Notes: generated from the sequence alone by a model not told the origin. Positions 58,173 through 58,310 are shown, numbered from the stretch's first letter. The stretch: 64,000 nt of DNA from Escherichia coli (GCF_044324875.1 NZ_CP172185.1); one strand, 5' to 3'. Translations and numbers: made by a program.

Positions 58173-58307
58173 ATGGTTCAGTGTGTTCGACATTTTGTCT
58201 TACCGCGTCTGAAAAAAGACGCTGGCCTGCCGTTTTTCTTCCCGTTGATCACCCATTCCCAGCCCCTCAATCGAGGGGCTTTTTTTTGCCCAGGCGTCAG
58301 GAGATAA
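58173..58307 (+). CDS. pyrL: pyrBI operon leader peptide PyrL
   Basis: 44-aa ORF MVQCVRHFVLPRLKKDAGLPFFFPLITHSQPLNRGAFFCPGVRR ending 4 bp before pyrB; preceded by TATAAT at 58143-58148. Confidence 0.8.
   Translation: MVQCVRHFVLPRLKKDAGLPFFFPLITHSQPLNRGAFFCPGVRR
58262..58288 (+). terminator. pyrBI attenuator (rho-independent terminator within pyrL)
   Basis: gcccctcaatcgaggggc hairpin followed by TTTTTTTT. Confidence 0.75.
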
Positions 58308-58310
58308 AAG

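Follow-up and report, generated by a model that had tools for sequence, protein, structure and literature searches.

Results

The pyrL-pyrBI locus

The window, that is, the whole stretch of 64,000 nucleotides of E. coli DNA that was analysed, contains the gene order bdcR-bdcA-yjgH-pyrL-pyrB-pyrI-ridA-mgtA, which on comparison with RefSeq is the usual E. coli neighbourhood. Here pyrL lies directly upstream of, and in the same orientation as, intact pyrB and pyrI genes (Table 1). The product of pyrB was matched by TIGR00670 (419.7 bits) and by Pfam OTCace_N and OTCace; that of pyrI was matched by TIGR00240 (243.5 bits) and by Pfam PyrI and PyrI_C. Both the sequence itself and the ORF listing give pyrL an ATG at 58173, 44 sense codons and a TAA stop at 58305-58307; the 44 codons are as claimed in an earlier, sequence-only reading of this DNA. 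The encoded peptide, MVQCVRHFVLPRLKKDAGLPFFFPLITHSQPLNRGAFFCPGVRR, is a member of the Pfam PyrBI_leader family (PF08052; 117.1 bits against a cut-off of 25, spanning residues 1-44 of 44) and matches NF007587, the NCBIfam equivalog named “pyr operon leader peptide”, over its full length (120.1 bits; cut-off, 61). The end of pyrL had been placed 4 bp before pyrB. The pyrB ATG is at 58311 and the actual spacer is 3 nt (AAG, 58308-58310), which the end previously given for the leader, 58310, takes in.

Table 1. Features of the pyrL-pyrBI region and of mgtA, in window coordinates.
Feature	Coordinates	Strand	Basis
Putative -35 hexamer of the pyrBI promoter, TTGCAC	58120-58125	+	Inferred from spacing, 16 nt upstream of the -10 box
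-10 box of the pyrBI promoter, TATAAT	58142-58147	+	Sequence reading; K-12 identical
Transcription start and initial transcribed region, AATTTG	58155-58160	+	7 nt after TATAAT; motif named in the literature
Shine-Dalgarno (SD) of pyrL, GGGAGGA	58163-58169	+	Read in the sequence, 4 nt before the ATG
pyrL, gene for the leader peptide, 44 sense codons and TAA	58173-58307	+	ORF listing, family matches
Upstream (pause) hairpin, core GCGUCU-GAAAAA-AGACGC at 58205-58222	58203-58225	+	Folding, compensatory changes
U/C-rich tract UUUUUCUUCCCGUU, codons F21-L25	58233-58246	+	Sequence reading; strongly conserved among the aligned leaders
Attenuator: intrinsic terminator hairpin (58261-58280) and T8 (58280-58287)	58261-58287	+	Folding, terminator scan, conservation
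SD of pyrB, AGGAG	58299-58303	+	Sequence reading; just upstream of the pyrL stop
pyrB, aspartate carbamoyltransferase catalytic chain, 311 aa, full length	58311-59246	+	
pyrI, aspartate carbamoyltransferase regulatory chain, 153 aa, full length	59259-59720	+	
mgtA, 898-aa P-type ATPase gene	60385-63081	-	

Two further ORFs were set aside. One, of 110 aa on the minus strand (57861-58193), spans the intergenic region; it matches no Pfam family, RefSeq does not annotate it, and it is probably spurious. The other, in the +1 frame (58169-58318), was taken as spurious, its start overlapping the SD and its conservation ending with Escherichia and Citrobacter. A weak terminator-like hairpin of 5 pairs is also present at 57990-58004 (+), around 100 nt past yjgH.

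Promoter and transcription start

A consensus promoter scan of 57850-58450 called no promoter, because the putative -35 hexamer has only 3 of the 6 consensus bases. The promoter was assigned instead from the perfect TATAAT, from the way this is spaced relative to AATTTG, and from the literature. The -10 box is followed directly by the G+C-rich spacer GCCGGAC (58148-58154), and an ATAATGC context is found upstream of the leader in many related loci. The pyrBI operon has also been reported to be under stringent control; its promoter is listed among the stringent promoters, of which a short G+C-rich discriminator near the start is typical (PMC6524683).

AATTTG is the initial transcribed region of pyrBI described in the literature, where AAUUUn transcripts are made at high UTP and released; this reiterative transcription cuts the number of productive transcripts ~7-fold (PMC7039003, PMC6524683). 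In 79 of the 81 loci compared below, a tract of three T (73 loci) or four T (6 loci) immediately precedes GCCGGGAGG. Judged by its motif, from which we infer slippage, this second UTP sensor is intact.

A PurR ChIP peak of weak signal has been reported at pyrLBI (PMC3159470). No PurR box with 3 or fewer mismatches was found near the pyrBI promoter; the sequence AAACCGTTTGCGC (58084-58096) is similar to a PurR box into which one base has been inserted.

Identity to the K-12 leader

Comparison with the E. coli pyrBI leader, which had been suggested as a check, was carried out against K-12 MG1655. It was in E. coli K-12 that experiments established the workings of the pyrBI attenuator. Over 58125-58330, a segment that takes in the -10 box (from 58142) and continues past the start of pyrB, the two sequences are 100% identical, and RefSeq annotates the identical sequence in K-12 as pyrL followed by pyrB (b4246 and b4245). 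Further upstream, in the yjgH-pyrL intergenic region (57893-58124), there are 11 substitutions relative to K-12. The one nearest to pyrB, A58124, changes the putative -35 hexamer from the TTGCGC of K-12 and is the sole difference within 190 nt of pyrB; it may affect promoter strength.

The complete 438-nt segment 57893-58330 is also 100% identical to many complete E. coli genomes in which RefSeq annotates pyrL and pyrB. Between the -10 box and the pyrB ATG, a stretch of 174 nt, identity was 99% or more in 5416 of 5424 complete E. coli genomes; of 12 records drawn at even intervals along the ranking, 11 were 100% identical. The description of the leader as “intact” was thus justified.

The intrinsic terminator within pyrL

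An intrinsic terminator lies inside the leader ORF, shortly before pyrB. Its hairpin, AGCCCCUC-AAUC-GAGGGGCU (58261-58280), has 8 pairs, 6 of them G-C, around a 4-nt loop, with a seven-pair core at 58262-58279, and the T-run consists of exactly eight T (58280-58287). The presence of a GC-rich hairpin and eight T residues within the coding region had been noted previously and stands; the limits given for them, 58262-58288, do not, as they extend one base too far, 58288 being a G. The attenuator falls within codons 30-38 of pyrL, the hairpin taking up codons 30-36 and the last T opening codon 39, and its end is 23 nt from pyrB.

Folding of 58230-58295, the other check that had been proposed, gave the hairpin as a stable structure, both as the minimum free energy (MFE) and as the centroid fold, at -15.9 kcal/mol, so that the failure to fold named beforehand as a refutation did not occur. 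Alone the hairpin has an energy of -15.3 kcal/mol, and it is retained in folds of the whole leader and of the 133-nt terminated transcript. When this 66-nt piece was compared to dinucleotide shuffles the z-score was just -1.68, and 12 of 200 shuffles folded as well, which makes the folding energy weak evidence when taken by itself. A terminator scan detected the site. A strict definition of a terminator was also applied, in which a stem of 7 or more uninterrupted Watson-Crick pairs, 5 or more of them G-C, had to enclose a loop of 3-6 nt and to be followed directly by 7 or more T. It gave 2 sites on both strands of the 64-kb window and 0 in 60 first-order Markov simulations. The other of these sites (32298-32322, +) is presumably a strong intrinsic terminator.

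Previous work on pyrL agrees with a functional terminator at this position: the hairpin lowered expression of a downstream reporter ~18-fold in vivo (PMC5021804), and the terminator has been described as lying inside the 135-bp leader gene and as not being repressed at normal UTP (PMC4824070). In the predicted folds of the nascent leader no helix competes with the 5' arm of the terminator, and 58245-58260 are unpaired in the MFE folds, which is consistent with the ribosome being the antiterminator.

It could be argued that the hairpin and T-run are a constitutive terminator, or a structure arising by chance, in which case the ORF would be meaningless and uncoupled to pyrBI. The modest z-score is in keeping with this, as are the weak, sub-threshold Rfam matches on both strands, which resemble those of many generic terminator hairpins. 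Such a structure would not be expected where this one lies, 369 nt from the stop codon of yjgH and beyond both the -10 box and the start site of pyrBI, nor would it be expected to lie in a full-length member of a curated leader-peptide family. Furthermore, 79-81 of 81 species-level genomes keep both the ORF and the hairpin before pyrB, in the same relative position and with compensatory changes in the stem, and ribosome-dependent suppression of termination has been shown with this exact sequence (PMC5021804, PMC10135430). We therefore regard a constitutive or chance structure as extremely improbable and read the element as the UTP-sensitive attenuator of pyrBI, as had been proposed: the family membership, the RefSeq annotation, the identity to K-12 and the literature on that sequence all support this.

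Searches of Rfam, over the region in E-value mode and over the whole window at the gathering threshold, returned no family that covers the pyrBI leader, and thus give no independent confirmation from an RNA model. The sub-threshold matches that were obtained (Chlorobi-1, Hrs1, GcvB, Trp_leader and others) can be put down to the generic terminator hairpin alone. No match of the PyrR-binding type known from Gram-positive pyr attenuators was found in 57850-58450 at E-values up to 1 or in the whole window at the gathering threshold. Elsewhere in the window, a magnesium riboswitch (RF01056, 125.8 bits) lies at 63175-63290 (-), directly upstream of mgtA, and is the known mgtA leader. Other matches at the gathering level are Ysr276 (184.6 bits, 45460-45654, -), naRNA4/CssrE (74.7 bits, 46490-46565, -) and a tRNA (59.4 bits, 39364-39445, -).

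The upstream hairpin and the U/C-rich tract

The upstream hairpin followed by the U-rich tract forms, by its sequence, a candidate polymerase pause region. The hairpin folds at -10.5 kcal/mol, and on the alignment of 75 leaders 95% of its cells are paired. Changes on both sides were seen for 3 of its 5 pairs (for example U-A in 41 leaders, C-G in 16 and U-G in 12), and each of its 37 sequence variants retains a perfect stem of at least 5 pairs.

Polymerase is known to pause on the U-rich template at low UTP, and a “hairpin pause” has been reported in pyrL (PMC10135430). In one recent in vitro study, a pyrL pause was found ~24 nt upstream of the classical site, independent both of NusA and of a rescued hairpin (PMC9291695). 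In view of this last result the role of the upstream hairpin in pausing is less settled than that of the terminator in termination, despite its conservation.

Conservation of the leader in the Enterobacterales

A PyrB scan with one genome per species gave 80 Enterobacterales loci, ranging from Escherichia to Yersinia, Serratia, Rahnella and Pantoea; with the window itself the set comprises 81. Their 75 distinct leaders were aligned with MAFFT. Loops of 3 nt and of 4 nt had fallen out of register in this alignment, and RNAalifold consequently returned 4 pairs and no covariation. An anchor-based tabulation of the hairpins, together with counts for the named structures, was used in its place.

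A GC-rich hairpin and a run of seven to nine T are found upstream of pyrB in all 81 loci. As the sequence-only reading had it, the device is a conserved one and not a novelty; it is the known K-12 system. The terminator hairpin occurs in 31 variants, in each of which 7 or more pairs form a perfect stem, and in several of them both arms have changed together relative to E. coli. The innermost C-G pair has become U-A in 16 loci (Klebsiella, Kluyvera, Raoultella, Pluralibacter and others), the outer G-C pair has become A-U in two Atlantibacter-type leaders, an additional G-C pair is present on both arms in 6 Cedecea/Buttiauxella loci, and one Kluyvera locus has a paired deletion in the stem. Most genera have 36-42 nt between the two hairpins.

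In each of the 79 leaders whose start could be located, the leader ORF runs at least as far as the beginning of the terminator stem. Leader translation would therefore reach the terminator, with no antiterminator helix being predicted, and in the window the ORF covers the whole hairpin. Where the ORF ends is much more variable: the stop lies within the hairpin loop or 3' arm in 49 of the 79, between the T-run and pyrB (the E. coli type) in 14, and at least 8 nt into pyrB in 16. The pyrBI leaders of Salmonella, Citrobacter, Klebsiella and other Enterobacterales share with that of the window the TTT tract, the SD, the ORF, the two hairpins, the U/C-rich tract and the run of seven to nine T. Most of them differ in having 33-34 codons and a TGA or TAA stop in the terminator loop or 3' arm; in Salmonella and Citrobacter, for instance, AAT-TGA ends the leader after 33 codons, whereas E. 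coli has AAT-CGA and 44 codons. The E. coli loop base C58272 (AATC rather than AATT) removes this stop, and the leader therefore continues for 11 more codons, to 3 nt before pyrB. The pyrL SD is nearly invariant in the alignment of the 75 distinct leaders, and CAGGAGA is found at the position of the pyrB SD in most of the related loci listed.

An alternative is that the PyrL peptide is a functional micropeptide to which the terminator is incidental. The N-terminal 25 residues (MVQCVRH.VLPRLK.DAGLPFFFPL) are well conserved among the Enterobacteriaceae, and Pfam treats PyrL as a protein family, both of which would fit such a role. Against it, the C-terminal third varies in frame and length among genera, as is clear from the stop positions above, and in Yersinia, Serratia, Rahnella and Pantoea the peptide is almost fully divergent while the hairpins, the U/C-rich tract and their spacing are kept. 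As the peptide diverges in the Yersiniaceae and Erwiniaceae and the RNA elements persist, conservation follows the RNA or DNA elements and not the peptide; a micropeptide function for PyrL is thus very hard to credit. What is conserved, to judge from these alignments, is the set of RNA structures, the U/C-rich tract, the start tract and the apparent access of the ribosome to the terminator, and not the C-terminal peptide. The distribution of stop codons and of hairpin variants lends modest support to the view that ribosome position and RNA structure, rather than the peptide, are selected.

Two observations on single loci may be added. In Yersinia aldovae and Y. artesiana (L079 and L080, ~520-700) there are ~165 extra nt between the T-run and pyrB, giving a distance of 186-187 nt as compared to 22-88 nt elsewhere; we take the insert to resemble an ERIC/IRU repeat. 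The record titled Citrobacter freundii strain M-21 (L057) has the terminator ACCCCTC-AAT-GAGGGGT and a PyrB identity of 89%. Its leader and PyrB fit Atlantibacter hermannii (L061, with which it makes up the two Atlantibacter-type leaders above) and are unlike those of the other Citrobacter loci, so the record is probably mislabelled.

Comparison with amino acid-sensing attenuators

The leader gene contains three consecutive Phe codons at 58233-58241, and it is conceivable that the attenuator is of the amino acid-sensing type found in trp, his or phe operons, with stalling at Phe codons (F21-F23, F37-F38) switching between terminator and antiterminator. None of the Rfam models for leaders of this kind (Trp_leader, His_leader and similar) was matched above threshold in the searches described; the best score, 19.7 bits for Trp_leader, could be taken as a hint in this direction, but it is so far under the gathering score of 41 that it is best regarded as noise. 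No antiterminator pairing with the 5' arm of the terminator is predicted. A ribosome stalled at F21-F23 would be ~20 nt upstream of the terminator and would leave the hairpin free to form, giving more termination and not less. The Phe codons themselves are a by-product of the U-rich tract that UTP sensing requires; distant genera change the peptide and yet keep the U/C-rich nucleotides. We know of no effect by which Phe starvation derepresses pyrBI through the leader independently of UTP. Sensing of Phe by this leader consequently deserves almost no credence, and the UTP-sensitive, ribosome-masked attenuator is the reading retained here.

There are nevertheless clear similarities between the two kinds of system: trpL, hisL, pheL, leuL and thrL share with pyrL a short translated leader, a synchronising pause and an intrinsic terminator before the first structural gene. 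In trpL-type systems charged tRNA is sensed at regulatory codons and the outcome depends on a switch between antiterminator and terminator helices; in pyrL, by contrast, it is the polymerase that responds to UTP, and the terminator is blocked by the ribosome itself. For the control exerted at the start tract the closest parallels are pyrG of Bacillus subtilis, codBA and upp-uraA, which like pyrBI have a homopolymeric start tract where the nucleotide level sets productive initiation (PMC7039003). Slipped transcripts are released at pyrBI, whereas at pyrG they are extended into an antiterminator, and at pyrBI the reiterative control acts in series with a ribosome-dependent attenuator.

Possible pairing of the SD with the U/C-rich tract

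In predicted folds of the ribosome-free leader RNA, 58237-58244 (UCUUCCCG) and 58229-58233 pair with the SD (58162-58169) and the start region (58173-58177) with a probability of ~1.0. Across the 75 leaders the potential for this pairing was seen in 91% of cells, compared to 47-72% in slid registers, and cognate SD:tract duplexes had energies of -18.2 kcal/mol as against -13.9 kcal/mol for composition-matched shuffles. Column shuffles gave the same level of pairing, so that this alignment carries no signal of covariation, and any pyrimidine tract is a trivial partner for a purine-rich SD. In the Yersiniaceae the SD GGGAGAAA occurs together with the tract UUUCUCCC, which plausibly represents one compensatory change from G-C to A-U.

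That the pause tract doubles as an anti-Shine-Dalgarno element of pyrL is doubtful, and we put it forward as a lead and not as a finding. If it did, the window for translation initiation would close once polymerase had passed the tract; only a ribosome loaded early would then couple to polymerase, and terminated leader RNAs would stay untranslated.

Discussion

The region analysed here is almost certainly the promoter-proximal control region of E. coli pyrBI, which operates in two UTP-sensing modes and with no regulatory protein. Every element of it is present, identical to K-12, and conserved with compensatory changes. The K-12 pyrL-pyrBI system studied by Turnbough and co-workers (b4246) shares with the window the peptide, AATTTG, both hairpins, the U/C-rich tract, T8, the 23-nt distance and the gene order. 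The differences are confined to A58124 in the putative -35 hexamer and to the intergenic substitutions further upstream, with none in the transcribed leader. Since the transcribed leader is the K-12 leader, the published mechanism should apply directly; UTP dependence, pausing and masking by the ribosome are taken from this identity and from the literature (PMC10135430, PMC5021804, PMC4824070).

According to that mechanism, transcription would start from A58155 and a ribosome would begin translation of pyrL at 58173. At high UTP polymerase would cross the U-rich leader with no lengthy pausing, the hairpin at 58261-58280 would form ahead of the ribosome, and termination in the U-run (58280-58287) would yield a leader RNA of ~133 nt. 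At low UTP, polymerase would instead pause past the hairpin at 58205-58222, in the U/C-rich tract (58233-58246), allowing the ribosome to catch up and to occupy codons ~30-32 as the terminator sequence emerges. The ribosome would then physically block formation of the hairpin, with read-through into pyrB and pyrI as the result. It is the ribosome itself that would have the role of antiterminator, there being no alternative antiterminator RNA in this scheme. The second mode would act at initiation: at high UTP the nascent AAUUU would slip on the TTT at 58157-58159, extra U residues would be added and the transcripts released, and there would be less productive initiation.

Work by others on pyrL is in line with these steps, and no result obtained here speaks against them. 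The attenuation mechanism has been restated and reconstituted, including the hairpin pause and the termination site (PMC10135430), and in vivo the coupling of a ribosome is required to suppress the pyrL terminator, a slower upstream ribosome leading to more termination (PMC5021804).

The pyrL/pyrBI attenuator of this chromosome is therefore present in its wild-type form, and is already known. The pyrBI leader is a textbook case of control exerted with no regulatory protein, through nucleotide-sensitive pausing together with ribosome coupling, and pyrL still serves as a model template in studies of transcription-translation coupling (PMC10135430). The significance of the present analysis is one of annotation: in this E. 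coli chromosome the pyrimidine-responsive control before pyrBI is intact and wild-type.
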